DNA from: a virus
Reading direction: 5' to 3' (one strand)
Virus record (IMG/VR): IMGVR_UViG_3300045988_088815
Location: 32,001 to 96,000 of that record
DNA length: 64,000 nt
Shown: piece after piece, positions 21,815-57,700 of the stretch
Position numbering within the stretch: the first letter of the stretch is position 1
How the letters are laid out: each line of letters begins with the position of its first letter
The notes under the pieces: model-generated
Told to the model about the DNA's origin: nothing
The model's input: the letters and a program-made list of their open reading frames with translations, nothing else
Database searches by the model: none
Position numbers and translations under genes: made by a program

Positions 21815-23005
21815 ATGAAGAAGATAGAAGAAAAGTACTTGGAATCAGAACATCAAGTTAGAGCTTATGATGTTTATCTGAGTTCATATCGTGTGAAAGG
21901 TGCAAATCGAGTGTTGGCTTATAGTCGATTGTATGATGGTGACAAATTCATTCGTGACAACTTCCTGGTCAACGAGCAACAAGCCGACAAAATAGAGGCT
22001 ATGTTTGACTTGGTTAATAGAATATTGGAAACTTGTAAGGATATAGACTTGTTTACGATTCGTGTTTCAAACAAAACTTTTGCGAATTTAGTGAAGAATG
22101 CTGACTTTGCGGAAGAGTCTAATCGCTACTTTGGCAATATATCTAGATTTAAACGTCTGCTTGGCAAGAGGGAGGTGATAATTGTTATTCCCAATTGGTG
22201 TACCGCAAACAAAAAAGATTATGCTATTGACGAAATGGCAAAGGATTTGTATGCGAAGATACCATCTTCCCGAGTCTTTTCGGGTTTCTGTATAAAGAAA
22301 AATTGGATAGAAAAGGGCTTTATCGAAGATTTGTGGGACTTGTTATGGAAAAACGAATGGAGACAGAAAGATGGAAACTATTGTGATGATTGGCGAACAT
22401 TGGCAGGTGCTTACAACTCCGTTTTGCGAACAGGCAAGAATGCAAAGTATGGAAAGGTTCAACCTAAGAAAGAAGAAACTGTTGTGGAAAGAAAAAGGCT
22501 TCTTCCAAACTATATTTGCTATACAGATGGCAGCTGCGATAACTATTCCACCCATAAGGCAGGTGGTTCTGCGTATATTGTTGTGAATACATCTACAGGT
22601 GAACTTGAAAAGGTCAAGACACACCATTGCTTGCATACTACCAATAATAGAATGGAGATGTTAGCGATAATATCAGCCGTTAATTATTGCCCGAAAGGTT
22701 CTGTCATAGAGGTTCGAAGTGATTCCAAGTACGCATTAAAGATGTTCCGATATACAGATTGGGAAATAGGCGCAGATATAAAGAACACAGATTTAATCAA
22801 GTTGTATCGTAAGTGTGCAAAGGATAAGCTTGTTATTTTGACTTGGGTAAAGGGACATAATGGCGATGATTTGAACGAGCAAGCGGATTGCTTGGCTTTT
22901 GGTGCATATGAGAAAGCATTAAAAGAGAATGGCTTACCAATGGCTCCTGAGAAGTATCGTGCTATGAGACGAGGCAAGCAGACGGTGTTTGAAACAGATA
23001 ATTAA
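21815..23005 (+). CDS. RNase H domain protein with unknown 230-aa N-terminal extension
   Basis: The C-terminal YTDGSC...NNRMEMLAI...VRSDSKY...GHNGDDLNEQADCLA gives the DEDD RNase HI pattern. Confidence 0.75.
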   Translation: MKKIEEKYLESEHQVRAYDVYLSSYRVKGANRVLAYSRLYDGDKFIRDNFLVNEQQADKIEAMFDLVNRILETCKDIDLFTIRVSNKTFANLVKNADFAEESNRYFGNISRFKRLLGKREVIIVIPNWCTANKKDYAIDEMAKDLYAKIPSSRVFSGFCIKKNWIEKGFIEDLWDLLWKNEWRQKDGNYCDDWRTLAGAYNSVLRTGKNAKYGKVQPKKEETVVERKRLLPNYICYTDGSCDNYSTHKAGGSAYIVVNTSTGELEKVKTHHCLHTTNNRMEMLAIISAVNYCPKGSVIEVRSDSKYALKMFRYTDWEIGADIKNTDLIKLYRKCAKDKLVILTWVKGHNGDDLNEQADCLAFGAYEKALKENGLPMAPEKYRAMRRGKQTVFETDN

Positions 23006-23023
23006 AGATAAATTTGATTTATT

Positions 23024-23374
23024 ATGAAAGAGTTAAGTTTTGATAAGCTATACGTAAAGTTTAGCAATTTATATTGTGAGTATCGTAGTAGAAAGCAATT
23101 CTTGAAGTGGTTGAAATCCTCAAAGAATCTTTCTGAAGAGTTGTTTGAAGTAACGCCAAGTGAAGGTGGTTCGTTTGACGTTGTGTTGTCTTTTGAAGAG
23201 ATAAAGGATGTATTCCCGATTATGGAGAATTCATTGCCTAAGTACGAAAACGATATAAAGCAAGTTCTTTTGGCTATAAAGGAAATGGGACAGCTTGAAG
23301 TTGCAAAGATATGGCATGAGGATGATTGGGGTGATGGCTTTGTAGAGGATTTTTGTAAAACCCATGATATTTAA
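23024..23374 (+). CDS. hypothetical protein
   Basis: 116-aa ORF abutting the methyltransferase gene. Confidence 0.55.
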   Translation: MKELSFDKLYVKFSNLYCEYRSRKQFLKWLKSSKNLSEELFEVTPSEGGSFDVVLSFEEIKDVFPIMENSLPKYENDIKQVLLAIKEMGQLEVAKIWHEDDWGDGFVEDFCKTHDI

Positions 23375-24423
23375 TGAAGATACGGACGTTTGAACTTTGT
23401 GCCGGATATGACTCTCAACTGATGGCTTTGGAGCGGTTGAAGAAGAAATATTCTGATTTCGATTACGAGTGCATCGGATGGTCTGAGATAGAGCCAAATG
23501 CAATAGCTTTGCATAATGCTTGCTTTCCTAGTCTATCCGGCAAGAACTTTGGTGACATGACCAAGATAGATTGGAGCAAGGTAGCCGATTTTGACTTGCT
23601 GACATATTCAACACCTTGCCAGTCTGTTTCGCAAGCCGGAAAGCAGAAAGGAATAGAGGAGGGAAGCAATACACGTTCCTCTATCCTTTGGTTCACAAGA
23701 AACGCCATTATTACCAAGAGGCCGAAATACCTCTTGATGGAGAATGTAGAGGCTTTGGTTCAAACAAAGTTCATAGGGTTCTTTAACAAGTGGCGCAAGG
23801 AGTTAGAATCATATGGATATATCAACTTCGCTAAGGTGGTAAATGCAGCCGACTGCGGTGTTCCTCAGAACAGAAAGCGTGTATTTATGCTCTCTATACG
23901 AAACGATGGTGATAAGATAGATTATCATTTTCCGAGAAAGACAAAACTAGAGAAACACTTGGTTGATGTCTTGGAGGAAAATGTGGATGAGAAGTACTTT
24001 TTTAGTGATGACTTGCTATGTAAAGAGAAATTTGTATCGAATGAATGGAAAGAACCTATGAGTGCAGCTATAAGAACTCGTTCTGAGGGGAAGTGGATAA
24101 AAGGCGAAAAGCATAGTTCAAAGGTCGAACTTGGAAAGAACATAGCCAATACCATTACATCTGCGAGCAAGGACTCCTTGGTTGTGCTTGGAGAGACAAG
24201 GTTGCGCATTAGGCGTTTGACTCCGAGAGAACTCTTCCGCTTAATGAACGTTGACGAAGAATACATAGACAAGATGCTTGAAAGTGGAGTGTCGAAGTCA
24301 AGTCTTCAAAAGGCTGCTGGAAATTCGATTGTCGTAGCTTGCATGGAGAGGATATTCAAGGAACTTTGGTTTTCTGAGAGTAATGTTAAGGTCGCTGATG
24401 ATGGTCAGCTATGCTTATTTTAA
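23374..24423 (+). CDS. dcm: DNA (cytosine-5)-methyltransferase
   Basis: Motifs ELCAGYDS (I), TPCQSVSQAG (IV), MENV (VI), QNRKRVF (VIII) and GNSIVV (X). Confidence 0.9.
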   Translation: MKIRTFELCAGYDSQLMALERLKKKYSDFDYECIGWSEIEPNAIALHNACFPSLSGKNFGDMTKIDWSKVADFDLLTYSTPCQSVSQAGKQKGIEEGSNTRSSILWFTRNAIITKRPKYLLMENVEALVQTKFIGFFNKWRKELESYGYINFAKVVNAADCGVPQNRKRVFMLSIRNDGDKIDYHFPRKTKLEKHLVDVLEENVDEKYFFSDDLLCKEKFVSNEWKEPMSAAIRTRSEGKWIKGEKHSSKVELGKNIANTITSASKDSLVVLGETRLRIRRLTPRELFRLMNVDEEYIDKMLESGVSKSSLQKAAGNSIVVACMERIFKELWFSESNVKVADDGQLCLF

Positions 24424-28237: not shown

Positions 28238-28494
28238 TGAAAATCGAACCAAGTGAGTTCTTGCCTATAGGTAATGAATTTCAGAAAATCTTCGGAATAA
28301 GCTTTGGAAAATTCATTGATATGCGGTTTCTTTTAGCGAGAAAAGAGTTAGTCTTCAATCTACTGAAGTTCACAGATTGGCTTGAAGAGTGCTATCCGGA
28401 TGAGTGTTCCATTGATGGAGTGAGCTATAATGCTGTTGTCGAGCGAAAGTTTGGTAAGCGAGGTGTTAAAATGATTAAGAAGTTGATAGGATGA
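28237..28494 (+). CDS. hypothetical protein
   Basis: 85-aa ORF, overlaps on both sides. Confidence 0.5.
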   Translation: MKIEPSEFLPIGNEFQKIFGISFGKFIDMRFLLARKELVFNLLKFTDWLEECYPDECSIDGVSYNAVVERKFGKRGVKMIKKLIG

Positions 28495-29216
28495 AGTACA
28501 TGGGTAGTAAGGCTAGAATCGTGCATGAAATATTGCCGATTATGCTGGACAAGGAACATGATACGTTTGTAGATGCTTTCTGTGGTGGTTGTAGCGTTAT
28601 TGAGAACGTTCCGGATACGTATCGCAGGATTGCCAACGATAAGAATAGGTATCTTATCGAAATGTGGAAGTATCTTCTGAATGATGGGTTTGTCTTCAAC
28701 CATATTAGTAAGACGTTGTATAACTTTGCAAGAGACTGCTATCACGGAAAGAATAATTTCTTCACAGAAGCAGGTGTCGGACTAATTGACTTTATGGCGA
28801 GCTTTAATGGCCGATTCTTTGATGGTGGCTATAGCGGACATAATGTTGTCGGCAAGAACGGAAAGGCAAGAGATTACATAAGGGAGCAGATAGAAAACAC
28901 AATGCGTGATGTGCCTCTTCTCAAAGGTGTTGAGTTCTATAGCGGCAGTTATGATGAACTTGTGATACCGGATAGGAGTATAGTGTATTGCGATTTGCCT
29001 TACAAAGCTACAAAAAAGTATGATGTATCAAAGAATTTCGATTACGAAAGATTCTATATATGGTGCATGGAAATGGCTAGGAGAGGTCATAAGGTATTTA
29101 TCAGCGAATACCAGATGCCCCAAGAGTTCAGATGTGTTTGGGAAAAGGAAGTAACCAATTCCCTTAACCCGAATATTACAAAGAGACCTATTGAAAGGTT
29201 GTTTACTATTGATTAG
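28491..29216 (+). CDS. dam: DNA N6-adenine methyltransferase (Dam/D12 class)
   Basis: MKYMGSKARI, FVDAFCGGCSV (SAM motif) and the DPPY-type motif CDLPY. Confidence 0.85.
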   Translation: MKYMGSKARIVHEILPIMLDKEHDTFVDAFCGGCSVIENVPDTYRRIANDKNRYLIEMWKYLLNDGFVFNHISKTLYNFARDCYHGKNNFFTEAGVGLIDFMASFNGRFFDGGYSGHNVVGKNGKARDYIREQIENTMRDVPLLKGVEFYSGSYDELVIPDRSIVYCDLPYKATKKYDVSKNFDYERFYIWCMEMARRGHKVFISEYQMPQEFRCVWEKEVTNSLNPNITKRPIERLFTID

Positions 29217-29875: not shown

Positions 29876-31012
29876 ATGATTTCATACAAGTACAAGCTAT
29901 ATCGGACGAAGAAGACGAAGCATTTGGATAAGATGCTCCGTGAGGCTTGCTATGTTTGGAATCACGCTCTTGCCTTGCAGAAGAGATATTATAAGCTGTA
30001 TCACAAGTACATTCCAAGATTTACTATGTATAAGCATTTCTCTAAGTGTTATAAACCAACATTGCTTAATTGTCAAACAGTTAGGGAGGTGTTGGATAGA
30101 TTGGATATATCTTACAAGCGTTTCTTCAAGCATGATGCGAAGCGTCCACCAAAATTTAAGAAAGCAATAGAATTTGGTTCATTTGCCTTTCAACAAAATG
30201 GCTATTCCCTTAGTGGAAACGAGTTTGTGATAAACAAGATAAAGAAGTCATTTAAGTTCTCTCTGAGCCGTCCCTACGATGGTAAGGTCAAGAGGGTGTC
30301 GGTCAAGCGAAACAAGTTGGGCGAGTACTTTATCGTCCTTTGCTTAGACAAGCAAGCCGAGTCTTACGGAAAGTCACATGATGGTGCATCCGTGGGCATC
30401 GACTTTGGATTGAAGAAGTACATGACTTTGAGCGATGGGCGTGAGATTGATAATCCTCAGTTCCTTAAAACTGACTTGTTGGAGCTTAGACGCAGGTCTC
30501 GCAACCTCTCGAAGTGCAAGAAGGGCAGCAATAACCGCAAGCGCAAGAAGCTGGAGTTGGAGCGATTGTATCAAAACATCGTGAACAAGCGTTCCGATTT
30601 CCAGTGGAAGATGGCGCATGAGTTGTGCAAGCGTTATGACTTGATTTGCTTGGAGGATTTGAACTTGGAGGGAATGAAGCGTAATTGGGGACGCAAGATG
30701 TCTGACTTGGCTCATGGCGATTTCGTTGTGAAGTTGGAACACGTTGCGAAAAAATATGGCGTTCAGGTTCATAAGATTGACCGATTCTTCCCTTCGAGCC
30801 GCCTTTGTACTTGTGGTTATAAGAATGATAAGCTGTCATTGAGTGATAGGGTTTGGACTTGTCCTATTTGTGGTGCAGTTCATCCTAGAGACCTCTTTGC
30901 AGCTGAGAATATACTTCGGCAGGGCATTGCCGAATTGGGTAGTGGTAGTAAGCCGTCCGAGCAATCGCAAGGGTGCAGCCACGTTAGTCACCCAACAATT
31001 CCTTGCAAGTAG
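29876..31012 (+). CDS. tnpB: TnpB (OrfB) RNA-guided nuclease
   Basis: RuvC motifs GIDFGLK, CLEDLNL and HPRDLFAAENI, plus the zinc finger CTCGY...CPICG; typical YKYKLY N-terminus. Confidence 0.9.
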   Translation: MISYKYKLYRTKKTKHLDKMLREACYVWNHALALQKRYYKLYHKYIPRFTMYKHFSKCYKPTLLNCQTVREVLDRLDISYKRFFKHDAKRPPKFKKAIEFGSFAFQQNGYSLSGNEFVINKIKKSFKFSLSRPYDGKVKRVSVKRNKLGEYFIVLCLDKQAESYGKSHDGASVGIDFGLKKYMTLSDGREIDNPQFLKTDLLELRRRSRNLSKCKKGSNNRKRKKLELERLYQNIVNKRSDFQWKMAHELCKRYDLICLEDLNLEGMKRNWGRKMSDLAHGDFVVKLEHVAKKYGVQVHKIDRFFPSSRLCTCGYKNDKLSLSDRVWTCPICGAVHPRDLFAAENILRQGIAELGSGSKPSEQSQGCSHVSHPTIPCK

Positions 31013-35306: not shown

Positions 35307-35343
35307 TAACTATCCCTTATGGGATATAAATATAAGTAATATG
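35307..35343 (+). repeat. intergenic unit U1 (hairpin, GGGATATAAATA, start codon)
   Basis: TAACTATCCCTTATGGGATATAAATATAAGTAATATG; homologous to U2 and U3. Confidence 0.6.
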
Positions 35344-35520
35344 GTAGTATTGTTAACGATTTTAGGAACTATCTTTCTGATAGTTAGTGCAATATTTTGG
35401 TCAGAAACGCCAAAGTTGAGAACAGTAAGTATTGTAATTGCGACAGTGGCAGCAATACTTATGACCTTATGTTATGTAGGCTCTGTGCTTGCACAATATA
35501 TGATAGAATTTACGAAATAA
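35341..35520 (+). CDS. small two-TM membrane protein (59 aa)
   Basis: Hand translation MVVLLTILGTIFLIVSAIFW...IVIATVAAILMTLCYVGSVL. Confidence 0.45.
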   Translation: MVVLLTILGTIFLIVSAIFWSETPKLRTVSIVIATVAAILMTLCYVGSVLAQYMIEFTK

Positions 35521-35521
35521 T

Positions 35522-35563
35522 TAACTAACCATCCTGCAAGGGATATAAATAGAAGAGAATATG
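35522..35563 (+). repeat. intergenic unit U2 (hairpin, GGGATATAAATA, AGAAGAGAATATG)
   Basis: TAACTAACCATCCTGCAAGGGATATAAATAGAAGAGAATATG. Confidence 0.6.
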
Positions 35564-36343
35564 AAGGAATTAAGAAAGAAAACATTTAAGAATGGTGTCG
35601 TGTATTGCCTTCAATTAGAAGATGGTTTCCTTGTTGAAACGACAGATACATTCTTGCCTTATTACACCAAAGATGCAATAGGCAGACATCAGAATAAGCT
35701 CGACAACAATGAGCTTGGCGACCGCACGGAACGTTGGATGATAGGAGTATCTACAATGAGTGGGTGTCCAGTAAGATGCAAGTTCTGTGCTACAGGCAAC
35801 ATGAAACGTTATCGCAATCTTACGGCAGAAGAAATTGTTGAACAGGTTGAATTTGCCATCAACAAGGCAGGTGCTGACCCAAGCAAAGCAAAAGAGTTTA
35901 AGATTAACTATACTCGTATGGGCGAGCCATTCCTCAATATTGATGCAGTCAAGGATGCTATCCGCATTATTACTGAGAAATACCCAAATACTCATCATTA
36001 CGTATCAACGATTGGCATTAAGGGAAGCGATTTCTCTTTCATTAAGGGAAATATTACGTTACAGATTAGCTTACATTCATTTGATGATGACAAGCGTAAT
36101 TGGTTGATTCCTTACAAGAACAAGATGACTATTCAAGAGTTAGGTCAGATTCGCACAGAAAGCAATCTGAAGACTACAATCAATCTTACACTTGTTGACA
36201 CTTCCGATTTTGATGCAGAAAAGCTGAAAAAATGGTTTGATAAGGAGCATTTCTTCGTGAAGTTGTCTCCTATTAATGTGAATAACATATCAGAGAAAAA
36301 TCACCTCGGCAATGGTGTTGTAGAAGGAATTAATTTAGTATGA
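35561..36343 (+). CDS. RlmN/Cfr-family radical-SAM methylsynthase core, C-terminally truncated and lacking the resolving Cys
   Basis: VET..., GVSTMSGCPVRCKFCATG (CX3CX2C in the RlmN context), RNLTAEEIVEQV, RMGEPFLN, STIG, LQISLH and KLSPIN align by eye with E. coli RlmN residues ~100-320. Confidence 0.8.
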   Translation: MKELRKKTFKNGVVYCLQLEDGFLVETTDTFLPYYTKDAIGRHQNKLDNNELGDRTERWMIGVSTMSGCPVRCKFCATGNMKRYRNLTAEEIVEQVEFAINKAGADPSKAKEFKINYTRMGEPFLNIDAVKDAIRIITEKYPNTHHYVSTIGIKGSDFSFIKGNITLQISLHSFDDDKRNWLIPYKNKMTIQELGQIRTESNLKTTINLTLVDTSDFDAEKLKKWFDKEHFFVKLSPINVNNISEKNHLGNGVVEGINLV

Positions 36344-37107
36344 AAAAGGGTATTTTCAGATATAGAATTATCACAAATCTGAATTGCAACATGAACGAAA
36401 GTACAGGAGTAAACGGAAATTGTTACTTCTGCTACCAAAAGTTTAAGTCACCATTGCGACTGGATTGTGATAAGATGGAGGAAACTTTGAAGAAGGTTGG
36501 TGTTCTGAAAAGAGCAACTATCATGGGAGGCGAAAGCTTGCTCAATCCAGATTTGGTAAAGATTGTAAAGATAGTCAGCAACTATACATCTGATGGTATC
36601 TGTCTTGTTACAAATGGAATACTGCTTAATGAGGACATCATCGTTGCATTGAAAGATGCCGGATTAACTGAGGTTGCTATCAGCGTGTCTTCTATCGAAC
36701 AGTACGAAAGACGTAGAGATATGGCACTTCTGTGTAAGGAGATTATTCCAAACACAAGAATAAACATTCCTAAGTGCAAGGAAAGTTTGAATCCACAACT
36801 ACTGAAAACAATACTATCAGATGGTTTCTATAGCATTGTATGCGAAGATTTACAGGCAAGGTATGGTGAGATAAGACTCCCAGATGGTTCTGTAAAGGTT
36901 GGTGATGACGGATATGGATTCTATGATTACAAGTGGAATGGACATACATTTGGAGTATTTGGCAATTATGGGAAGTACAACAGAAGCGATATTATCATAA
37001 CTCCTCTTGGAAATTTCTGTGATTGGGAAAAGTATTGCAAGGCCGTTAAGAACAATGAGCTTGTAAGAAGAAATAATCATATTGATGATGACAAAATTGT
37101 GCATTGA
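36340..37107 (+). CDS. second radical-SAM enzyme (MoaA/SPASM-like core) with spaced cluster motif CX11CX2C
   Basis: ITNLNCNMNESTGVNGNCYFC, IMGGESLLNP and LVTNGILL; ATGA overlap with the upstream gene. Confidence 0.65.
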   Translation: MKKGIFRYRIITNLNCNMNESTGVNGNCYFCYQKFKSPLRLDCDKMEETLKKVGVLKRATIMGGESLLNPDLVKIVKIVSNYTSDGICLVTNGILLNEDIIVALKDAGLTEVAISVSSIEQYERRRDMALLCKEIIPNTRINIPKCKESLNPQLLKTILSDGFYSIVCEDLQARYGEIRLPDGSVKVGDDGYGFYDYKWNGHTFGVFGNYGKYNRSDIIITPLGNFCDWEKYCKAVKNNELVRRNNHIDDDKIVH

Positions 37108-37528
37108 TTTCGGAAGTGGCTATAATCCAAAGGCTGGATATAAAACTTGCGATATAACAACCTTTCCACAATTGGATTTTCAGTATGATGGGAAAGATGA
37201 GATTGTCGGTCTTAGAGAAAAATCAGTAGATGTATTTTATCTAAGAAACGTTGTTCATCATATCCCAGATTTACAGAGAACTTTTATAACCTTGAAGAAG
37301 TATCTGAAGGTAGGTGGGAAGCTAGTTATCATTGATTGCAATAAAGGTCATTATAAGACAAATGTATTTCTTGACAATTTATGGTATAGATTTGTTGGCA
37401 ATAACAACGAAATCTTTATCAGTAAACAGTATAGAGATTACATTAACGTTTTGATAAAGTTAGGTTTTAAGCAATTATATTATAAATCATTTAAAGAAAA
37501 GGAGATTACTAAGTATGAATGCAATTAA
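37082..37528 (+). CDS. class I SAM-dependent methyltransferase
   Basis: CIDFGSGYNP (motif I) and VDVFYLRNVVHHIPD (Methyltransf_11-like). Confidence 0.7.
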   Translation: MMMTKLCIDFGSGYNPKAGYKTCDITTFPQLDFQYDGKDEIVGLREKSVDVFYLRNVVHHIPDLQRTFITLKKYLKVGGKLVIIDCNKGHYKTNVFLDNLWYRFVGNNNEIFISKQYRDYINVLIKLGFKQLYYKSFKEKEITKYECN

Positions 37529-37634
37529 GAATCAATTGGAAAAGATGGGCTACGATTATGCAGTAGCAATCGCAACAAAGGCTGAAATTGAGAATGGAGC
37601 TGCTTGTGGTCAGCTCGCTATTATTTGTGAGTAA
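37515..37634 (+). CDS. 39-aa peptide equal to the detached RlmN/Cfr C-terminal segment with the catalytic Cys (AACGQLA)
   Basis: Hand translation MNAIKNQLEKMGYDYAVAIATKAEIENGAACGQLAIICE. Compare E. coli RlmN [31 protein letters not shown]. Confidence 0.65.
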   Translation: MNAIKNQLEKMGYDYAVAIATKAEIENGAACGQLAIICE

Positions 37635-37635
37635 G

Positions 37636-37689
37636 TAATTAACCACCCTCTCCTTGGCAACAGGGAGAGGGTAAAAAGAAGAGAATATG
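37636..37689 (+). repeat. intergenic unit U3 (hairpin, GGGTAAAA, AGAAGAGAATATG)
   Basis: TAATTAACCACCCTCTCC...GGAGAGGGTAAAAAGAAGAGAATATG; the ends match U2. Confidence 0.6.
37646..37671 (+). terminator. hairpin closing the radical-SAM operon
   Basis: 8-bp stem CCCTCTCC / GGAGAGGG. It is followed by an A-rich rather than T-rich tract, so terminator activity is uncertain. Confidence 0.45.
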
Positions 37690-37983
37690 GACTTAGTAAT
37701 TACAATATTAGGTTGGATTGCATTAGGTGTTATATCTGCTTATCTGTTAGCAATAGTAGGTAAAATAATCTTTGATGCTGCAACCGCTGATTATAAGTTA
37801 TACAAGCATGTAAGATTGTGTCGCAAGAGATTGCTAAGACAGCGATATGAAGATTATGCTTGGCTATTATTCCAGTTAGAGAAAGATACGAAAGTTTTCA
37901 ATCTTACTCATAATACAAGAGATTGGACTTTTGAAGATTGGAGAGAATTTTATCTTAAAAAAGCTAAGGAGGATAAGCTATGA
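37687..37983 (+). CDS. membrane protein (N-terminal TM)
   Basis: ITILGWIALGVISAYLLAIVG. Confidence 0.55.
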   Translation: MDLVITILGWIALGVISAYLLAIVGKIIFDAATADYKLYKHVRLCRKRLLRQRYEDYAWLLFQLEKDTKVFNLTHNTRDWTFEDWREFYLKKAKEDKL

Positions 37984-38114
37984 CTATAACAATACCAATG
38001 TGGCTACTATATGTCGTAGGAGGCATTGTAGCAATCGTATTATTATTTTGTTCGTATGTTGGAATAATTTTTCTGTGGGGTTTTTATGACCCTTTTAAAA
38101 AATTTAGAAAATGA
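37980..38114 (+). CDS. small membrane protein (44 aa)
   Basis: Hand translation MTITIPMWLLYVVGGIVAIVLLFCSYVGIIFLWGF. Confidence 0.4.
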   Translation: MTITIPMWLLYVVGGIVAIVLLFCSYVGIIFLWGFYDPFKKFRK

Positions 38115-38254
38115 ACAAAGATAAAGCAATAGTTCACATTAATAATGTTTCCAAGATGATTGGCTCAAAAAGAATAAAATTAAGTGAAGGCACTACAATT
38201 TATATTCAAAACGAGTTAGTCTTGGCACTTAAAGAGTTGGAGATTAAAGTTTGA
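38111..38254 (+). CDS. small hypothetical protein (47 aa)
   Basis: Hand translation; ATGA overlaps on both sides. Confidence 0.35.
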   Translation: MNKDKAIVHINNVSKMIGSKRIKLSEGTTIYIQNELVLALKELEIKV

Positions 38255-38538
38255 TGAAGAAAATTTATATGATTATAAGAATTTTAACTTGTAAGAAAGT
38301 TATTCTTATCTCAGAGTTAAGTAAAAATTCCTATAAAGTATCCTTTGGTGGTTTATATGAGATTGAAGCAACTAGGGTTCTTAGAAATATTATTTTAACA
38401 AGGAATAGTATGGATAAAGAATTTATAAAAGGTCAGCTTAAAAGTGCTTTGTTTTGGCTCAATACGTCAAATACAAAGAAGAACATCTTGCATGCTAAAG
38501 ATAGTATAAATATGGCAATTAAAGAGTTGGAGGACTAA
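38254..38538 (+). CDS. hypothetical protein
   Basis: 94-aa ORF from the first ATG. Confidence 0.5.
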   Translation: MKKIYMIIRILTCKKVILISELSKNSYKVSFGGLYEIEATRVLRNIILTRNSMDKEFIKGQLKSALFWLNTSNTKKNILHAKDSINMAIKELED

Positions 38539-38539
38539 T

Positions 38540-38743
38540 ATGACAAAGCAAGAAGCAATGGCTTTCGCTATCAGCGTAGGAAAGCCGATAAGGCACAACT
38601 CATTCTCAAAAGGTGAGTTTGTTCGATATGAAGGAAAGGAGTTAGTTGATGAAGAAGGAACTATCCTTCCTCAACAAGAGTTTTGGGCTATCCGTTCAGG
38701 TGGCTCTTGGGAGAATGGATGGGAAGAATATAATGATAATTGA
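38540..38743 (+). CDS. hypothetical protein
   Basis: 67-aa ORF. Confidence 0.5.
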   Translation: MTKQEAMAFAISVGKPIRHNSFSKGEFVRYEGKELVDEEGTILPQQEFWAIRSGGSWENGWEEYNDN

Positions 38744-38745
38744 TT

Positions 38746-38916
38746 ATGACAAGAGAAGAATTACAAAATAAACATGGCGATGCTATCTGTGAGTATTGTA
38801 ACAAGAACATTATCTCAGAATATAACATCGGCATAGGTTGGCTTTGCGAAGGTCAGTATTGTGAGGAAGCACAAGATGGCTACGCAGCAGAAAATAACAT
38901 AGAGTTGGAGGATTGA
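38746..38916 (+). CDS. small Cys-rich protein (56 aa)
   Basis: Hand translation with CEYC...CEGQYC. Confidence 0.4.
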   Translation: MTREELQNKHGDAICEYCNKNIISEYNIGIGWLCEGQYCEEAQDGYAAENNIELED

Positions 38917-38918
38917 TT

Positions 38919-39260
38919 ATGATACAAAAACAGACATGGAAGGATGAAATCAGAATTTTAATAACTGATGAAGAAAATCATGGCTCTGTTCAAATATCCA
39001 TTCCATTATATGTTAGTGATATTTTCGGCAAGGCTGATGCTCTAATATACGCTCTTTGGGTTGATGTTGTTTATAGAAGAAATGGTGTTGCACAACGCCT
39101 GTTACAACTCGCAGAACAACAGGCTAAGTTAAATGGGGTGAAGACAATCGGATTGGAATTTGATAAAGATGAATCTGATAGATTTGTTCTAGATTGGTAT
39201 CTCCGTAGTGGTTATAAATCATTTGATAAGAAAAGTAATTTATTAATTAAAAAAATATAG
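38919..39260 (+). CDS. GNAT-family N-acetyltransferase
   Basis: LWVDVVYRRNGVAQRLLQLAEQQAK matches the acetyl-CoA binding R-x-x-G-x-A motif. Confidence 0.65.
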   Translation: MIQKQTWKDEIRILITDEENHGSVQISIPLYVSDIFGKADALIYALWVDVVYRRNGVAQRLLQLAEQQAKLNGVKTIGLEFDKDESDRFVLDWYLRSGYKSFDKKSNLLIKKI

Positions 39261-39268
39261 TATTAGTT

Positions 39269-39490
39269 ATGTCATGGTTAGCAGTAGATAAAGGTGGCTG
39301 TGAACATATTTTTGCAGAAAAACCTTGCAGAAATGAAAGTAATACATTATGGATTTGCTCTGTCTTATATTTATATGGGCAGAGGTACGCAAATACCGGT
39401 TGCTGTTACCTTCCTAAAGGAAGCATTAAGAAGCTCATCGGAAAAGAATTGTCTTGGAAAGATGAGCCTGTCGAACTTAAAGAAGATTGA
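39269..39490 (+). CDS. hypothetical protein
   Basis: 73-aa ORF; preferred over the overlapping frame 39294-39683. Confidence 0.5.
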   Translation: MSWLAVDKGGCEHIFAEKPCRNESNTLWICSVLYLYGQRYANTGCCYLPKGSIKKLIGKELSWKDEPVELKED

Positions 39491-39491
39491 T

Positions 39492-39683
39492 ATGGAAGAA
39501 TTATTAAAGGCATTATTGGATGTATATATTCCTGTATTAAATGCTAATTGCAAGAAAACGTTTGCATTCTTAGATGAATACGTTCCTCCACCTACAAGGA
39601 AGGAAAGACGTAAACGTGAAAGAGAACTTAAAAAGAAGTTTCCTCTCGATTTGACAAAGTTTATAGAATCACATAGAACTTAA
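39492..39683 (+). CDS. hypothetical basic protein
   Basis: 63-aa ORF from an internal ATG of the track ORF 39294-39683. Confidence 0.45.
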   Translation: MEELLKALLDVYIPVLNANCKKTFAFLDEYVPPPTRKERRKRERELKKKFPLDLTKFIESHRT

Positions 39684-39695
39684 AGAAGAATAGTT

Positions 39696-39953
39696 ATGGA
39701 AACATATAGAATAGTAGATATGTATCGTAAAAGCAAGGCTGTTAAAGGCATACATTACGATTCTCAGGATAATCCAATCCTTGCTTATCGTGTAGATAAG
39801 AGACATTCATTGTTATTTGGACTTATCCATTATTGGGACTATGGCGCATATAACCTTTGCCCAGACTATTTGTTTTCTTCGATAGATAAAGCAGAAGAAG
39901 CTATATTGAAGGTTGATAAAAGTAGAAGAGTAACAATTATTTTATATAAGTAG
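39696..39953 (+). CDS. hypothetical protein
   Basis: 85-aa ORF. Confidence 0.5.
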   Translation: METYRIVDMYRKSKAVKGIHYDSQDNPILAYRVDKRHSLLFGLIHYWDYGAYNLCPDYLFSSIDKAEEAILKVDKSRRVTIILYK

Positions 39954-39956
39954 CTT

Positions 39957-40352
39957 ATGAAAATTAAAGATATTAAGTTCAAGGCTAAACGTCTTGACGG
40001 AAAAGGATGGGTTTGCGGATATTTCTACGAAGAGAATGGTAATACATACATCATTGAGAATCGTCAGAAAGAAAGCAAGTTAAACAGAAATCCCACTTAT
40101 CAGGTTGACCCTTCTACCGTCTGCCAGTTCACAGGGTTGAAAGATAGTGAGGGAAAGGAGATTTGGGAAGGTGATATTCTTCGGGATGTATATTTTGGTC
40201 ATTTTAAGCACTTTGTTATTTTTGCTAACGGCACATTCTTGGCACAAAAGGAAGGTCAATATATAGGTATTCCTCTTAACAAATGTGTAGATAATTTTGG
40301 CAATGTAACTTGCGCAAAAGTTGTCGGCAACAAATTCGATAAAAAGAAGTAG
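39957..40352 (+). CDS. YopX-family protein
   Basis: KFKAKRLDGKGWVCGYFY...VCQFTGLKDSEGKEIWEGDIL is the typical YopX pattern. Confidence 0.6.
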   Translation: MKIKDIKFKAKRLDGKGWVCGYFYEENGNTYIIENRQKESKLNRNPTYQVDPSTVCQFTGLKDSEGKEIWEGDILRDVYFGHFKHFVIFANGTFLAQKEGQYIGIPLNKCVDNFGNVTCAKVVGNKFDKKK

Positions 40353-40355
40353 CGT

Positions 40356-40736
40356 ATGAATATAGGAATTTTATATCTTTGTATGAGTTTTATCTACATC
40401 CTGCTTATTTGCTTGGATGGAGAAGATGTAAAACCGAAATGGAAACAATGGCTAGCTGACAAACTAGGCATCAAGCCAAAGATAGAGGTTAGATACATAA
40501 AGCCACAAGTCGTTAAGCTTCATTCAAGAGTTACAATGTCGAATTTTGAAATGCAATACTATTGCCGTGACAAATCTGGCATGGAGCAATTGAAGAGAAG
40601 AGCAATAGAAAGTGTGTACGATGAAATTCTTAAGGGAATGAAGGCAAACGAATTGGTTTCCATTTCGCAATATAATGACATTTATAGTAATAACACTATT
40701 TATGAGGGGACATGTGAAATTTATAAAAACAAGTAG
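40356..40736 (+). CDS. hypothetical protein with N-terminal TM
   Basis: 126-aa ORF. Confidence 0.5.
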   Translation: MNIGILYLCMSFIYILLICLDGEDVKPKWKQWLADKLGIKPKIEVRYIKPQVVKLHSRVTMSNFEMQYYCRDKSGMEQLKRRAIESVYDEILKGMKANELVSISQYNDIYSNNTIYEGTCEIYKNK

Positions 40737-40739
40737 TAT

Positions 40740-41063
40740 ATGAAGATAAGACAAGCTAAGAAAATCTTGAATATGATGGCGAAAGGAACGGACACACGTT
40801 ACTTCGATTCAAAATATACATTCAAGAAAGAGAGTAGATTCATTCCTAGATTAAAGAATCTCTATCAGAAAGCAACTATCAGATGGAATAAGGTAAATAT
40901 GCCGAGTGCCAACGTTAGTTTGTTTCGTTCAATTTTGAGAACTTCAAAGGAATGCAGTCGTTGTAAACATTTCAATGGTATGCTTGCAGGAAGATGTACT
41001 AAACTACATAAGTATGTTGAAAGCAGCGATTGGTGTCATGGAACGTTTTTTCATAGAAAGTGA
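40740..41063 (+). CDS. hypothetical basic protein (MKIRQAKKI paralog 1)
   Basis: 107-aa ORF. Confidence 0.5.
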   Translation: MKIRQAKKILNMMAKGTDTRYFDSKYTFKKESRFIPRLKNLYQKATIRWNKVNMPSANVSLFRSILRTSKECSRCKHFNGMLAGRCTKLHKYVESSDWCHGTFFHRK

Positions 41064-51760: not shown

Positions 51761-54700
51761 ATGGCAGAATTAAGATTCGATGTCAAAGCGAATTTCGAGG
51801 AGGTTACGAAACTTCGTTCCGAGTGTGAAAAGTTGAGGGCTGAGTTATTGAAGACCAATAAGTCTACCGACCCAGCTATTGTTGCGGATTTGACGGAAAA
51901 ATATGCGGATGCTAGCAATCGCTTAAAGGACTTGACACAAGCTGCTTCAAGAGCCGCTTACGTGATGTCTTCCGAGTTTAATAAGAAGATGCAAGCAGCC
52001 GCAAGGGAAGTTTATAGCTATGAACTTCAAATGCAAGCTACCAAAGACCGAATAGAGAAAATCCAACAGCAAATCACGAACAAGAGATTAACTCTTGGAG
52101 TTACAACGGATAAGTCATCCATAGATTCTTTACAGAAGAATATTGACTATTTAAAAGGCTCTTTGGCAGGTCAAACAGCTCAGTTGAAGAACTTAGAAGG
52201 GGGTGCTGTCGGTGCTCGTCAGACCTTGGAGAATATGCGGAATGAGTATGTTTTGTATGCAGGTTCAGCAAATCCGGCAAAAGAGGCAACAAATATGTTG
52301 ACCGATAGCATGAGCCAAATGATAGAACGTATGAAGTCAGCTCCGACTGCTGGAGAAGGAATGACTAGTTTGTTCCAAAGAGTTACTGGCGATGCTCACA
52401 TGCTTTCGGCAACATTACTTGGTGGCTTAGGATTTGAACAACTGGCAGGTAGTATCTTTAATACTCGTTCCCAATTCCAGCAACTTGAAATATCTTTCAA
52501 TACCATGCTTGGTAGTGCGGATAAGTCTAAGCAATTGATGGACGAACTTATCCAAACGGCAGCTCATACACCTTTCGATATGTCCAGCATTACGGGTGGC
52601 GCAAAACAACTTTTGGCATACGGAACGGAAGCGAAAGATGTTAACAAAACCCTTGTCCAGCTTGGTGACATTGCTTCGGGCTTGAACATTCCGCTTGGAG
52701 AACTTGTTTATCTTTATGGAACGACCGTTTCGCAAGGAAGAATGTTCACAATGGATTTGCGTCAGTTCATGGGTAGAGGTGTCCCATTAGCAGAAGAATT
52801 GGGTAAAATCTTACACCAAAACACAACGGAGGTTCAAGAGTCTGTTTCCAAGGGTAAAGTGACATCAGACATCTTCAAGGAAGCTATCGCCAACATGACG
52901 CAAGCAGGTGGACGCTTCGGAGGCTTGATGGAGCAACAATCAAAGACATTGGAGGGTCAGTGGAGTAACATTGGCGATTCCATCCAGCAAGCGTTCAACG
53001 AAATCGGCAAAAAATCCGAGGGCGTGTTCTCTAGTGGATTGTCAATTATTTCTGCTATGGTAGAGAATTGGCAAGAGGTAATAAAAGTTATTGGTGTAGC
53101 TACAATAGCTGTTGGTTCTTATCGTGCATCGTTAATGGCGGCTGCTTCTATTCGCAAAGCTGAGGAAGCGCAACAAGCCGATGATATGATGAAGGGAATT
53201 GATGCAGAAATCAAGCGTTTGCAAGACCTAGAGAACTCAAACTACAAGTCGCTGGGTAAGGACAAAAAGCAAGAGCGAGTAAGCAAACAACAAGACTTGG
53301 CAAGTATTGTTGGAGATACTGCTGTGTCCGATGACTTTGTAAAGGCAAGGTTAGATGCAGCCGAGCAAGAGGGCGTTATTTCGGCACAAATGCGTTCCCA
53401 ACTAGAGACGAAACGTGAACTTTTACAGGCTCAGCAACAAGCAACAGCACAAAGCCAGATAGAACTTGATGAAGAAAAAAGAAAGACCGAGGAACTTCGT
53501 CAACAAAAAATAGAGTCTCTTAAAGATGATTTGAAGACTACTACGGAGAAAATATCAAATCTTGATGATAGGGATGTAGAGTTGGCTAGACAATATACAT
53601 CAGCTTTGAATGATTTACAAGATGCCCAAGATGCCTTTGCTGAGGCTCAAAAATTGGTTGAGGAAACTGCTGGTGGCGCAAACTTGGCTTTTGATGCAGA
53701 GGGTAATGCCGTGAATGCGCTAGAAGCAAAAGAACGTTTGGAAACGGCAACAAAACAAGTGAATGCTGCTCAAACAAAGATTTCGACCATTGAAAGCGAA
53801 CGTAAGACGATTGCTCAAACAAAGGAGAATTTAAGTAAGCAACAGGCTACGATACAAAATAATATTAACACTGTTTCTCAAGCTTCCAATACCACTGCAA
53901 AGAAAGCTGGGATATTGGCGACAACAACAGCCACTATCAAAAATGCGCTTTATGCAGCAGGTACAAAATATACGACTACGGTAGTTAATCTTTTTTCTAG
54001 TGCGGTAAGAAGTAGTGGAAATGCCTTGAAGAGTTTATGGGCGGCAATGGCTGCTAATCCGATAGGTGCATTGATAACACTGGGAACAACTTTGTATTCC
54101 GTATTTTCTATGTTTGGAGACGAGACTGAAGAAATTTCGGCAGATACAACACATTTTGGGGAAACAACAAGTTTGACCAGTAAAAAGGTTGAGACATTGA
54201 TGAATGTGTTGAGAAATACGAATGAAAGTACTGATGCACATAAAAAAGCAAAAGATGAACTTATTGGGGTATATGAACAATATGGAATAAAATGCGACAA
54301 TGAAAAGGATAATTTGGAAACGTTGAAAAATAAGCATGACGCTTTTATTGCTTCTTTACAATTAGAAAATGCTGAACGAGAAAAAGCTAACGCTTTGATG
54401 TCTATATCTTCTCAATATGAGGAAGCAAGGAAAAACCTAGATAAGGATTTTTCTGATTCACTAGGTGGTAGTTGGCTTGATTTCGGACAACATATTGATA
54501 AAGAAGACATATCAGCTGTACAGATGATGTTTAATTCACTTGTTTCTGATGATGCGTTGACTAAGATAGACTCTTTAAGGCAGAAAATGGATTCCGCAAA
54601 GAAAGGAACATTGGAATATGCTAATGCCGCACAAGAATACGATGCTGCTCTTCGCAACCTGTTAGTTCCTTTTGAGGAATGGGGTAAGAAGATGGGGTAC

Positions 54701-57700
54701 AATAGTTTCGTGATGGCAAGTTTGCGAAGTTCGATATTAAAGCATATAGATAGTATAAACTCTTTGAATGAAAGTTACAAAAAGGCAGAGGACGCAATAT
54801 ATAAAGGAAGCACAGCGACTGTTGATTGGAATAACTCCCAAGCAAAGGCTCGTTGGATAGTAAACAAGAACAAGCAATCAATCCAAGAATTGGTAGAGCA
54901 AACTGATAATCTTATCAATTTATGGAATAAAGAATATGGGTTGAATTTAAAAATTCATTATGATGATTCGGAAATTCCAAATTGGATGAAATCTATGACA
55001 ACGAAGGAGTTGCGAAATTTAATTTCAAGGAGAGAGGCGGATATTTTACAACAGGAAAATCACGAAAAGAAAACTGGGCATAAGTTGGTAACACGTTCAG
55101 GAGGTAAGTTTAGGTCAAGAACGGAAAACCAAACGGATGTCGCAATGGCGAAATCTATAATTCAATCACGTATACCAAAGAGTAGTACAACAACAAAATC
55201 AAATACAGCCCATACTACTCCAAAGAAAACAGGTACAACGGATGACCCACAAGCAAGAGCGTATGAACGCAAGAAGGCTGAGGAGGACTATTCCAAGTCT
55301 ATTTCATCCTATTCGGAGAAAGCTATCCAAGATATGACCAAGAATCGCATCAATGCGATGAATGAGGGTTATAGCAAGGAATTGGCTCAGATTACCGAGA
55401 ATGCCGACAAGGAGAAAAAAGCGGTAGAAGATGGTATAGACAAATTGGTTGAGGCTAGGAAAAAGCGTGACCAAGCTGTTTGGGTTAATTCCGGCAAGGG
55501 TCGTAAGGCTAATATGTGGAAACAGAGCAAAACCAATGAAGAGTACAAGAATGAGGTTTTGAATGAAACCATGAAGGATAGCAAGGGTAATCCGGTTAAG
55601 GTCAATGGTATGAATATGACCATAGGCATGAGTGTTGCTAATCAGATGAATGCAATTCGCGATAAGGCGGTAAAGCAGAATGAGGATGTGCTTGCTAAAG
55701 AAGCGCAAAGCATGTACGATTATCTGAAGACTTATGGCACATTCCAGGAGCAGAAGTTAGCTATTGCTGCCGATTATGCTAAGAGGATTAGCGAGGTTGA
55801 AAACTCTACGGATTCGGACTCAAGCAAGCAATGGAAGATAAAGTCTTTGAAAGAAGAGCAGAAGAAAGAGACGGATTCGGTTGAGGCTAGTGCTATTATG
55901 CAGAAGATAGACTGGTATCAAGTCTTCGGAAATGTTGGTGGCATTATGAAAGATGCGCTTGTTCCTTTATTGGCAGATCTGGATAAGTTCGTAGGTACGG
56001 ATAAGTTCCAAAATTTGGGTGCAGACCAGCAGAAGAGTATCGTTGATGCTATGCAGAATATCCGTAATTCGATTGGCAATACAAGTGATTTAGGTTGGAA
56101 AGACCTTGCAAGGGATGTTGTTGCTTATCAGGATGCTCTGAAGAATGCGAAAATTGCACAAGAGGAATACACGAAAACGGAAACTTTGCTTATACCTCGT
56201 ATTAAGGTTTTGCAAGAACAGATTGAGAGTGCGAAAAAGTCGGGCAATGTTGCAGAGCAAACAAGGCTACAAGAAGAATTGAATAAAGTTCAAGGTCAGT
56301 TAGCGGAGTCCGGAAAGAAGATTGTTACGGCTAACACAAAAGTTCGTACTAGTGGTCAGAAGTTGGCTCAAACGACACAGAATGTGACACAACCGATTTC
56401 CGCTATCCATGAGTTCCTTTCTACTTCTGGACTATCCGATTTGGCATCTCTTTGGGATAGTTTTGACCAACTTAAAGGTGGAATTGACGGATTGAAAGCT
56501 TTAAAGGAGGCTAAAAATGCGGCTGACGGACTGAAGGATATGGGTAAGGAAGCCGCAGATGCAGCCGCAGCCGCTGGCAAGAAAGCTGGCGATGCGCTAA
56601 GTGAAGGATTGTCAAAAGCCGGACTTATAGGCCAAATTGTTGCTGCCATTTTGAAGATACTTGATGTTTTGAAGGATGGTATCGGAACATTGATTAGCAG
56701 CTTGATTGATACAGTTCTGAATGCGGTCAATGGTATATTGAAGAACATTCTAAGTGGTGAGTTTATCACACAGATAGGAGGGTCTTTGGTAAGCGGTATC
56801 GGTAATATTCTCAATACAATCTCGTTTGGTGGCTTCAATAGTTTGTTTGGAGTAGGTGGAAACGCAAAAGAAGTAAACCGGACTATAGACAAATTGACGG
56901 CTAGGAATGAAATCTTGACGGATGCAATAGACAGATTACGTGACTCTATAGACAAGACTAGTGGTATCAAAGCCGTAGAAGACTCAGAAAAAGCTGAAAA
57001 ACTTCAAAAGGAAAAAGAGCAAAACCTAAAGGACATCATGGTGGCACAAATGGGTTATCATGGCTCTCATGGAAGTTTTAACCGTTATTTCCGAGGATTT
57101 TCGCAAGAGCAAATCAATAAGGTGTCTGAAGCGATAGGTAGACAATGGAATGGAAACCTAAGCGACATACGGTCTGCTGATGAAGCTAATGCGTTGTTGC
57201 AAAATCCTGATATTGTTAACAAGATTCAGAACACTGGTAAGGGAAATTATGGAGGAAGAGTCCTCGAAAAGTTGAAAGATTATGCGGCTGAGGCAGGAAC
57301 ATTAGAGGATATTGCTGATGACCTAGCAGAAAGCTTGACGCAAATATCTTTTGATAGTTTGAAGAGCGAGTTCATAGATACTTTGATGGATATGAATTCC
57401 TCTGCTCAGGACTTCTCTGATAATTTCTCCAAGATGCTTATGCAAGCCGTTCTGAAAGCTAAGGTAGATGATTTGTTGGGTAATGATATGCAAGCATTCT
57501 ATGATGAGTGGACGGAGCGAGCTAAGGCAAATGGTGGCAAATTGTCTCAGACGGATATTAATGAATTGAAGGGAAGGTACGATGAAATGGTTCAAGAAGG
57601 ACTGAAGATTAGAGATGAAGTAGCCGAAATAACTGGTTACAAGCAATCTTACGAGCAGTCTGCGTCTTCCGGTTCTTTTGAATCCATGAGCCAAGATACA

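Follow-up and report, generated by a model that had tools for sequence, protein, structure and literature searches.

A predicted phage radical-SAM enzyme related to RlmN and Cfr, with its cysteine-bearing C-terminal segment encoded as a separate microprotein

Locus layout and the two RlmN/Cfr-like pieces

The DNA analyzed here, called the window below, is a 64-kb stretch (64,000 nucleotides; positions 32,001 to 96,000 of IMG/VR record IMGVR_UViG_3300045988_088815) of an uncultured Bacteroidota phage, and our subject is a module of four overlapping genes on its + strand. Re-reading the window placed all four open reading frames (ORFs) where an earlier note, made by eye from the letters of the window, had listed them. 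ORF1 (35561-36343, 260 aa) encodes a class-A-like (RlmN/Cfr-like) radical S-adenosylmethionine (SAM) catalytic core, ORF2 (36340-37107, 255 aa) a second predicted radical-SAM enzyme, ORF3 (37082-37528 as listed, from TTG; ~146-148 aa) a minimal class I SAM-dependent methyltransferase, and ORF4 (37515-37634) a 39-aa microprotein homologous to the C-terminal helix-strand-loop of RlmN and Cfr. The coupling overlaps proposed for these genes are present as the ATGA junction of ORF1 and ORF2 and the 14-nt overlap of ORF3 and ORF4, but the 26-nt overlap claimed for ORF2 and ORF3 holds only with the TTG start. The true ORF3 start is more likely ATG 37085 or 37088, because ORF3 homologues begin at about 'M(L)xIDFGSG'; depending on the start used, this overlap would measure 20-26 nt. 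Directly 3′ of the ORF4 stop codon lies a hairpin with a 12-bp GC-rich stem (37645-37672, + strand; folding free energy -23.1 kcal/mol, z=-5.25). The hairpin had previously been placed at 37646-37671 and said to close the unit. It is indeed there and is possibly the end of the transcription unit, but no U-tract follows it and a terminator scan made no call at that site. In diverged loci, strong hairpins of unrelated sequence lie 3′ of ORF4 in many cases, though not in all.

The closest relatives of ORF1, as judged from sequence comparison and predicted fold, are RlmN and Cfr. Every RlmN/Cfr motif block that the earlier note had quoted is present, and ORF1 has in common with RlmN the radical-SAM barrel with beta-extensions and the MGEP, STxG and SLH motifs. 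The codons for Cys69, Cys73 and Cys76 (35765-35788, + strand) spell a CxxxCxxC motif for the [4Fe-4S]/SAM cluster, read from the sequence, and these cysteines are invariant in both of our protein alignments (A1 and A2). In NCBIfam, ORF1 aligns with positions 102-299 of the 355 in the RlmN model TIGR00048 (E=2e-22, 79.6 bits), and further RlmN and Cfr models match at about 1e-15; in Pfam, Radical_SAM is the sole match (PF04055, 1e-11); and in a sequence search of the PDB the best match is RlmN 6fz6 (E=6.6e-15), with E. coli RlmN and Cfr 9p0p also found. The profile match on which the earlier claim had been staked is therefore significant, and the TIGR00048 alignment, in ending at position 299, agrees with the view that ORF1 stops about 40 residues early. 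Homologues of ORF1 form 2219 clusters at 90% identity, nearly all of 260-262 aa and ending in ...EGxNLV, and the few longer ones are N-terminal over-extensions. One 601-aa homologue (P0122) carries an insertion of ~340 aa exactly at the third cluster cysteine (…CAF/C-LLPES…VLVHN/C-ATAK…, with slashes at the joins). Because the insertion holds a LAGLIDADG-like block, it is an intein in the active-site motif.

The region absent from ORF1 corresponds to ORF4, whose sequence (MNAIKNQLEKMGYDYAVAIATKAEIENGAACGQLAIICE) contains the motif AACGQL. Cys31 of this microprotein (codon 37605-37607, + strand) lies in the invariant A-C-G-Q motif and is the predicted counterpart of the methyl-carrier Cys355 of RlmN. 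Profile searches with ORF1 alone and with an ORF1+ORF4 concatenation both match RlmN/Cfr, and the concatenation scores 7.4-8.7 bits higher, with alignments that now reach the profile end (TIGR00048 aligned to 342 of 355, 87.2 bits; CfrAB to 337 of 338). When the concatenation is aligned to RlmN 6fz6 from the PDB, the alignment continues through 'aacgql'. As a chance control, a profile hidden Markov model made from the C-terminal ~45 columns of 29 unsplit relatives was run against all 1024 stop-to-stop ORFs that the six frames of the window contain at a length of 30 aa or more. Only ORF4 matched significantly (E=3.6e-8, 28.3 bits), and the runner-up had E=0.77. Both results bear out the proposal that ORF4 holds the missing C-terminus.

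ORF4 is also conserved as a coding sequence, a point on which the proposal could have failed. Across 37 distinct DNA versions, the pooled ratio of nonsynonymous to synonymous polymorphism (pN/pS) is 0.118, and the invariant G, V, A, A, T, A and G residues are each written with all four synonymous codons, a pattern that is one of strong purifying selection. A profile search recovers 2595 protein clusters for the microprotein family; the 120 listed range from 39 to 89 aa, most of them 39-49 aa. The C-G-Q residues are invariant in split and unsplit relatives alike. By alignment, then, ORF4 is a homologue of the RlmN/Cfr C-terminal segment with the methyl-carrier cysteine.

Structure prediction agrees with this assignment. 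When ORF1 and ORF4 were modeled with AlphaFold2 (AF2) as one fused chain from a 66-row alignment, the model reached a predicted local distance difference test score (pLDDT) of 92.4 and a predicted template modeling score (pTM) of 0.92, as against pLDDT 38 for a single-sequence run of the concatenation. The model is weak only at the artificial junction (residues 251-260). Its ORF4 part (pLDDT 77-92) is predicted to form a helix, a strand, a short helix and the Cys loop and to pack on the core, and the N-terminus of ORF1 is predicted to be only a beta-hairpin. In a Foldseek search of the PDB, the top nine matches are RlmN and Cfr (RlmN 6fz6, E=2.8e-15, TM-score 0.72; RlmN 3rfa, 0.71; Cfr 9p0p, 0.58), and the next fold family falls below 0.5. 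Among viral models, the best matches are uncharacterized COG0820-type phage proteins.

Spread and age of the split

Relatives of the pair are numerous, running to thousands of phage sequences. An ORF1 relative (69-100% identity) was located at 80 IMG/VR loci, and 74 of these have the micro-ORF. The other six comprise four deletion variants (L001, L036, L070 and L073), one locus that ends before the ORF4 position (L067) and one in which only ORF1 residues 1-229 were matched (L060). Three layouts occur among the 74. ORF1 and ORF4 are adjacent in 29 loci, 2-59 nt apart and in differing frames; 43 loci have the four-gene form of the window; and two (L076 and L078) hold another gene pair between core and microprotein. 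Among GTDB genomes, a separate micro gene is found in 44 of the 47 split-family loci, with core identity down to about 40%, and the carriers include bins assigned to Bacteroidota, Firmicutes, Proteobacteria, the Candidate Phyla Radiation and archaea. In two of these loci (L166 and L179) the order is reversed, the micro gene coming before the core. The pair also occurs in three cultured phages, where its products are annotated as hypothetical proteins: Kehishuvirus 'tikkala', a crAss-like phage of Bacteroides cellulosilyticus in which a 2-nt gap separates core and micro gene; Moorella phage MTATph1; and Pectobacterium phage Arno18, which has a 92-aa ORF between the two. Yersinia phage P778 counts as a further cultured carrier.

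The two pieces are not separate in every relative. In P0125 (49% identity, found in two samples), an ORF4-like segment is fused to the N-terminus of the core, and in the 695-aa P0148 the core stands between an N-terminal ORF4-like segment (hhalign E=2.4e-5) and a second radical-SAM domain. Unsplit sister groups exist as well, among them P0181 and P0203, which end in '...EEIRHQAACGQALE'. The comparison that the earlier note had proposed, for unsplit or differently split versions in related genomes, has thus produced unsplit relatives, N-terminal fusions, adjacent pairs and variant insertions. It also changes the picture from which that note began. A gene split by the SAM enzymes inserted into it is a misleading description, because ORF1 and ORF4 are directly adjacent in many relatives (the 29 loci above), and on this comparative evidence the split is ancient or ancestral and does not stem from the inserted genes. 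Of the two layouts, the adjacent pair is the more frequent (2219 ORF1 clusters versus 98 ORF2 clusters).

The same data bear on whether the split might be a pseudogene or an assembly artefact, with ORF4 a chance small ORF. A few related genomes lend this some color. Relative to window positions 36141-40875, the four deletion variants show clean deletions that begin in the ORF1 tail or within ORF2 and extend past ORF4, and since these are natural variants of close relatives, the module is dispensable in natural populations. However, the split is seen at 74 loci of IMG/VR and 44 of GTDB (more than 115 independent loci) and also in the three cultured phage genomes, the spacing and frames of core and micro gene vary, ORF4 is under strong purifying selection, and it stands alone at E=3.6e-8 among all ORFs of the window. 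The artefact explanation is thereby refuted, and we regard its probability as negligible; the split is real and does not mask a contiguous gene. A frameshift or read-through product joining ORF1 to ORF4 was considered too, and it is ruled out by the varying frames and spacing and by the 1.17 kb that separate the two genes here.

We found no annotated relative of the module in a GenBank phage nucleotide search, and a full-text literature search returned no description of the split or of a phage RlmN-like system. This agrees with the earlier note, which knew of no described RlmN/Cfr enzyme with such a split.

Mechanism and departures from RlmN and Cfr

To our knowledge, no class-A radical-SAM methylase other than RlmN and Cfr has been characterized, and the ping-pong mechanism in which these enzymes use two cysteines is textbook material. 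The methyl-carrier cysteine, C355 in RlmN and C338 in Cfr, sits in a flexible C-terminal loop. Enzymes of this class have two conserved cysteines, and in RlmN C355 carries the methyl group while C118 (C105 in Cfr) resolves the enzyme-RNA crosslink and is essential for activity (PMC9692996). The phage pair has several of the corresponding features, namely a radical-SAM core with CxxxCxxC (C69, C73 and C76), the RlmN/Cfr fold in both AF2 and Foldseek, and a candidate C-terminal carrier cysteine, which is provided in trans by ORF4 Cys31 and not on the same chain.

Our favored reading, to which we give a probability of roughly 60%, is that of a two-chain radical-SAM methyl(ene) transferase of class-A-like type, made up of ORF1 and ORF4, in which the carrier cysteine comes in trans from ORF4. 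Its observed basis is the homology of both pieces, the coding conservation of ORF4, their pairing, the fusions and the predicted fold, from which we infer the complex, the chemistry and the substrate. ORF1 would supply the [4Fe-4S]/SAM barrel. ORF4 would dock at the site taken by the C-terminus in RlmN, add its helix and beta-strand to the sheet, and place the Cys31 loop over the active site. One SAM would then S-methylate Cys31, a second would be cleaved to the 5′-deoxyadenosyl radical, this radical would take a hydrogen atom from the S-methyl group, and the resulting thiomethylene radical would add to an sp2 carbon of the substrate. ORF2 and ORF3 might serve as an optional, syntenically conserved tailoring cassette in the same overlapping operon. 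The methylsynthase chemistry is proposed by homology to RlmN. By analogy with the family, the likeliest substrate, and the default guess, would be an RNA or DNA purine in the infected cell, but it might instead be a peptide or a small molecule. Of the earlier suggestion that the module serves C-methylation or nucleic-acid hypermodification, the RlmN/Cfr-like homology stands, and the methylsynthase chemistry and the nucleic-acid target have the conditional standing just described.

Several observations weigh against this reading. The position of the resolving cysteine is occupied by Gly62 of ORF1 (codon 35744-35746, + strand), as seen in the HMMER alignment with E. coli RlmN 3rf9 ('erwmiGvstmsgc' versus 'dratlCvssqvgc'). 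Glycine stands here in 16 of the 17 split-family rows of alignment A2, with alanine in the remaining one (P0205), and no other non-cluster cysteine is conserved in the alignments of ORF1 or ORF4. The single chain with an N-terminal helical RNA-binding domain is replaced by two genes, and the domain itself is absent; RlmN/Cfr model alignments of ORF1 begin at profile position 95-108, so that the first ~100 positions, which form the helical domain, are unmatched. Because C118 is replaced by glycine and the N-terminal domain is absent, canonical RlmN turnover and RNA recognition cannot simply be assumed. The fold prediction was made on one fused chain and not on a two-chain complex. Searches with ORF4 alone gave no RlmN match in the PDB, Pfam, NCBIfam or PHROGs, because the sequence is too short, and a profile of the ORF4 family alone did not reach RlmN in the PDB at E<=10, so its homology is seen only with the context of the core or with intermediate relatives. 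No nucleic-acid-related neighbor is consistently present, and tRNA genes occur at few loci only. Finally, the radical-SAM genes that recur beside the pair also fit a peptide or small-molecule pathway.

Because nothing in the family corresponds to the resolving Cys118, adduct release would have to proceed by another base or route, or else the microprotein may be consumed. Two split-family-specific residues, Arg119 (directly before the MGEP motif) and Lys234, could be named as a substitute base, but this is speculation. In the second case, ORF4 would be a consumable co-substrate and not a fixed subunit, as part of a sacrificial cysteine-microprotein chemistry derived from RlmN. A stable Cys-S-CH2 bridge is conceivable since the family lacks a resolving cysteine. 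The Cys31 thiomethylene radical might leave such a bridge in a peptide-nucleobase or peptide-metabolite adduct, or each turnover might spend one ORF4 that a fresh copy then replaces, and the variable second radical-SAM and methyltransferase cassettes could process the adduct. We consider this variant improbable relative to a two-chain enzyme in which ORF4 is a lasting subunit.

A more conventional possibility is that the pair is a genuine RlmN/Cfr orthologue that methylates host 23S rRNA A2503 or tRNA A37 and thereby changes translation or confers PhLOPSA-type (phenicol, lincosamide, oxazolidinone, pleuromutilin and streptogramin A) resistance. RlmN and Cfr are indeed the best profile and structure matches, JGI pipelines automatically give the name 'adenine C2-methylase RlmN' to some split-family members, and tRNA-related genes adjoin a few relatives (two split loci, L069 and L136, with nearby tRNA genes; RtcB near the module of L131; and an unsplit phage gene in a tRNA cluster, all described below). 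Nevertheless, neither ORF1 nor the concatenation reaches a family cut-off. TIGR00048 gives 79.6 and 87.2 bits, respectively, against a cut-off of 290, and the Cfr models give 57-66 bits against 468-550, the RlmN/Cfr cut-offs spanning 290-633 bits overall. Glycine stands in place of the essential C118, which the closest unsplit relatives lack as well, there is no N-terminal helical domain, and the 64-kb window contains no tRNA genes. We think this explanation distinctly unlikely, a shade more so than a consumable ORF4. The missing C118, the missing N-terminal domain and the sub-threshold scores mean that the split family is not to be classed with RlmN or Cfr. On these grounds, too, the relevance to antibiotic resistance that the earlier note saw in the Cfr relationship is unsupported, and ORF1 and ORF4 show no sign of rRNA targeting or antibiotic resistance.

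Side by side, RlmN (the 23S rRNA A2503 and tRNA A37 C2-methylase; TIGR00048; PDB 3RFA, 5HR7 and 6FZ6) and the phage pair have the barrel, the motifs and the A-A-C-G-Q-L loop in common. RlmN is a single chain, whereas the phage-encoded pair has its cysteine loop on a separate 39-aa product, an almost invariant glycine at Cys118, no N-terminal helical domain and a score below cut-off. Cfr (the 23S rRNA A2503 C8-methylase; NF000424 and TIGR04432; PDB 9P0P) has the fold and the C-terminal carrier cysteine in common with the pair, and ORF1+ORF4 aligns to the last residue of Cfr profiles; the differences are the same as those from RlmN. Also comparable are the unsplit phage or metagenomic RlmN-like proteins of COG0820 type (e.g., those of Pseudomonas phage 201phi2-1 and Stenotrophomonas phage ANB28, P0181/P0203, and P0213), which are uncharacterized. 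These are also short (~280-340 aa) and without the N-terminal domain, and those whose sequence was examined keep the C-terminal CGQ cysteine; unlike the phage pair, they are single polypeptides. P0181 and P0203 likewise lack C118 and have an N-terminal insertion in common with the split family, whereas an unsplit 'ICCS...GGGCGQLW' group retains C118. Another RlmN-like group of ~260-280 aa, marked by 'KIGVSLxSGC…' (P0176, P0199, P0201, P0207, P0209, P0214, P0217, P0222, P0232, P0234 and P0238), has glycine at the C118 position and lacks a cysteine loop altogether, its proteins stopping right behind the C-terminal strand ('…GFxYAxR'). This group may be split at another point or may use no carrier cysteine.

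If the two-chain reading is right, the split family breaks the RlmN/Cfr pattern, with the carrier cysteine on a free 39-residue microprotein and both the resolving cysteine and the RNA-binding domain dropped. It is nevertheless under strong purifying selection and occurs widely among phages of Bacteroidota (with a cultured crAss-like phage and a phage in an isolate assembly of Segatella copri among them), of Firmicutes and of Proteobacteria, and because several cultured phages carry the pair, its product can be sought directly. Knowing the substrate could bring to light a new modification, of nucleic acid or of something else, with a part in phage-host conflict. The pair would offer a natural two-piece system for dissecting class-A radical-SAM chemistry, and it indicates that a conserved micro-ORF can encode a catalytic part that has become detached from its enzyme. 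A two-piece design of this kind, without description in the literature searched, should be of considerable interest to radical-SAM enzymology and phage biology.

Cassette genes, neighbors and host

The assignment of ORF2 as a radical-SAM enzyme and of ORF3 as a class I SAM methyltransferase is borne out by matches in Pfam, NCBIfam and PHROGs. ORF2 matches PF04055 (3e-13) in Pfam and MoaA (2e-13) and viperin (2e-10) in NCBIfam. A defence-system library gave only partial viperin-like matches, among them pVip at 3e-13 over the N-terminal part only. As a pVip or MoaA protein, ORF2 matches over its N-terminal 100-120 residues and not over its full length, with 40-50 bits against cut-offs of 180-325. 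Many SPASM/twitch peptide maturases are among its weaker matches. Its cluster motif reads Cx11CxxC in the window and CxxxCxxC or Cx5CxxC in homologues, and the C-terminal half is cysteine-rich, with conserved cysteines. ORF3 matches Methyltransf_11 (2.9e-6, Pfam) and phrog_5399 (7.5e-27, PHROGs), has the motif I sequence IDFGSG, and is always paired with ORF2 in the loci read.

Whether these two genes take part in the reaction of ORF1 and ORF4 is a separate matter, since they could be a selfish or moron cassette that has no relation to it and landed by chance between two linked genes. Most pairs lack the cassette (98 ORF2 homologue clusters versus 2219 for ORF1, and 29 adjacent loci), and it is patchy within close ORF1 clades, being present in L043 and L049 and absent from L039-L048, which implies frequent gain, loss or recombination. 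Other genes fill the same slot in L076 and Arno18, and ORF3 has a lower G+C content (0.30 versus 0.38). In contrast, across 61 loci with ORF2 identity of 39-100% the cassette keeps the same place and order with overlapping ORFs, the sole exception seen being L076, where the micro gene comes first and an ORF2-ORF3 pair follows 1.2 kb further downstream. At three loci with distant ORF2 homologues (L133, L135 and L136; 39-54% identity), the cassette lies between core and microprotein, and the order core-ORF2-ORF3-microprotein is kept at 39-64% ORF2 identity. Because this order persists across diverged ORF2 loci, the four-gene operon is a conserved variant and not a random insertion. Each ORF2 homologue whose surroundings were read adjoins an ORF1/ORF4 pair, and the cassette contains no integrase, HNH or transposase gene. 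On balance we find an unrelated cassette unlikely, although it is the alternative to which we allow the most room.

Other radical-SAM genes accompany relatives of the pair. In L076 (5783-7000) and L078 (5883-7100), a 116-aa protein and its own 288-aa radical-SAM gene lie between core and microprotein, and the 288-aa type is also found in L165 and L166. The 116-aa protein has a C-terminal Cys/Gly/Ser-rich repeat (…GGCGSS…RGCGD…GSCGN…GRC), and the pair looks like part of a system for a ribosomally synthesized and post-translationally modified peptide (RiPP), to judge from its sequence. Further radical-SAM neighbors are a 239-aa gene after P0125 (L140), the C-terminal domain of P0148 and a 179-aa gene in L131; in L188, a B12-radical-SAM gene and GNAT genes stand beside an unsplit relative. 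The idea that all these second partners belong to one family was rejected on comparison.

Such neighbors raise the possibility that ORF4 is itself the substrate, a RiPP-like precursor or carrier peptide. A former C-terminal tail would have turned into a free peptide whose cysteine or other residues would be modified by ORF1 and, in the four-gene form, then by ORF2 and ORF3, the modified peptide being the product. A short cysteine-containing ORF at the end of operons with one or two radical-SAM enzymes and a methyltransferase is what would be expected, and the comparison with RiPP pairs such as PqqE/PqqA and SuiB/SuiA is close, in that radical-SAM genes there likewise adjoin a very short conserved ORF with a key cysteine, with tailoring enzymes in the operon. 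The SPASM/twitch maturases among the weaker ORF2 matches, the Cys/Gly/Ser-tailed protein with its own radical-SAM gene in the slot of L076 and L078, the resemblance of L188 to a biosynthetic cluster and the absence of an RNA-binding N-terminal domain all point the same way. However, the phage short ORF differs from those of RiPP pairs in being homologous to a segment of its own enzyme family, in being predicted to complete the fold and in sometimes being fused to the core. All 39 of its residues are conserved (helix, strand and Cys loop) and stand in register with the RlmN C-terminus, and AF2 packs it into the fold with high confidence. In most genomes the pair stands without any second enzyme, and neither a transporter nor a protease nor a leader/core organization was seen. 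Scans of ORF1 against Pfam, NCBIfam and PHROGs gave no RiPP recognition element (RRE), SPASM domain, protease or transporter, and ORF4 aligns with an enzyme segment without a leader/core pattern. We give the reading of ORF4 as the substrate only a small chance, on a par with that of a consumed ORF4, and continue to favor the two-chain enzyme.

In the window, the module is part of an accessory region and lies downstream of two methylases, one Dcm-type and one Dam-type, and of a TnpB gene. These are a C5-cytosine DNA methylase (23374-24423, + strand; PF00145, 1e-59), a Dam-like N6-adenine methylase (28491-29216, + strand; PF02086, 6e-17) and a TnpB or IS605 OrfB-type gene (29876-31012, + strand) with OrfB_IS605 and Cas12f1-like TNB and helix-turn-helix (HTH) domains. 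The window also encodes a protein with an RNase H domain (21815-23005) and two giant ORFs of 2307 aa (1938-8861, + strand) and 2087 aa (51761-58024, + strand), and small transmembrane (TM) proteins flank the module (35341-35520 and 37687-38114). A comparison of charge and isoelectric point was uninformative. Across phages, no neighbor is consistently tied to the module; tRNA genes, RtcB, SPFH/TerC membrane proteins and DNA methylases each occur in some.

Among the tRNA genes, ARAGORN places one in L069 (5929-6009) with an 8-nt anticodon loop ('catc'), 9 nt after the micro-ORF stop, and a tRNA-Met lies 450 nt upstream of the core at the same locus. In L136, a tRNA-Ile(tat) at 6455-6529 follows the microprotein gene by about 100 nt. 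These may reflect a weak link to tRNA biology or simply a tRNA-rich accessory region. In Stenotrophomonas phage ANB28, the unsplit RlmN-like gene lies inside a tRNA cluster, and in L131 RtcB is 5 kb from the module. Membrane genes adjoin the module in cultured phages, as with an SPFH/band-7 gene and a small TM protein in 'tikkala' (L081, 1955-3501) and TerC in Pectobacterium and Yersinia phages (L082, 4540-5460; L138, 4286-5200).

The portal protein of the window is a distant relative of the portals of Bacteroides phage Versailles and of Porphyromonas phages. A closer guide to the host comes from an isolate assembly of Segatella copri strain HF1825, in which a 135.6-kb contig (NZ_JANDWX010000006.1; L142) carries ORF1-ORF4. 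Its proteins are 97% (ORF1), 99% (ORF2), 97% (ORF3) and 100% (ORF4) identical to those of the window, which suggests that S. copri is the host of this phage.

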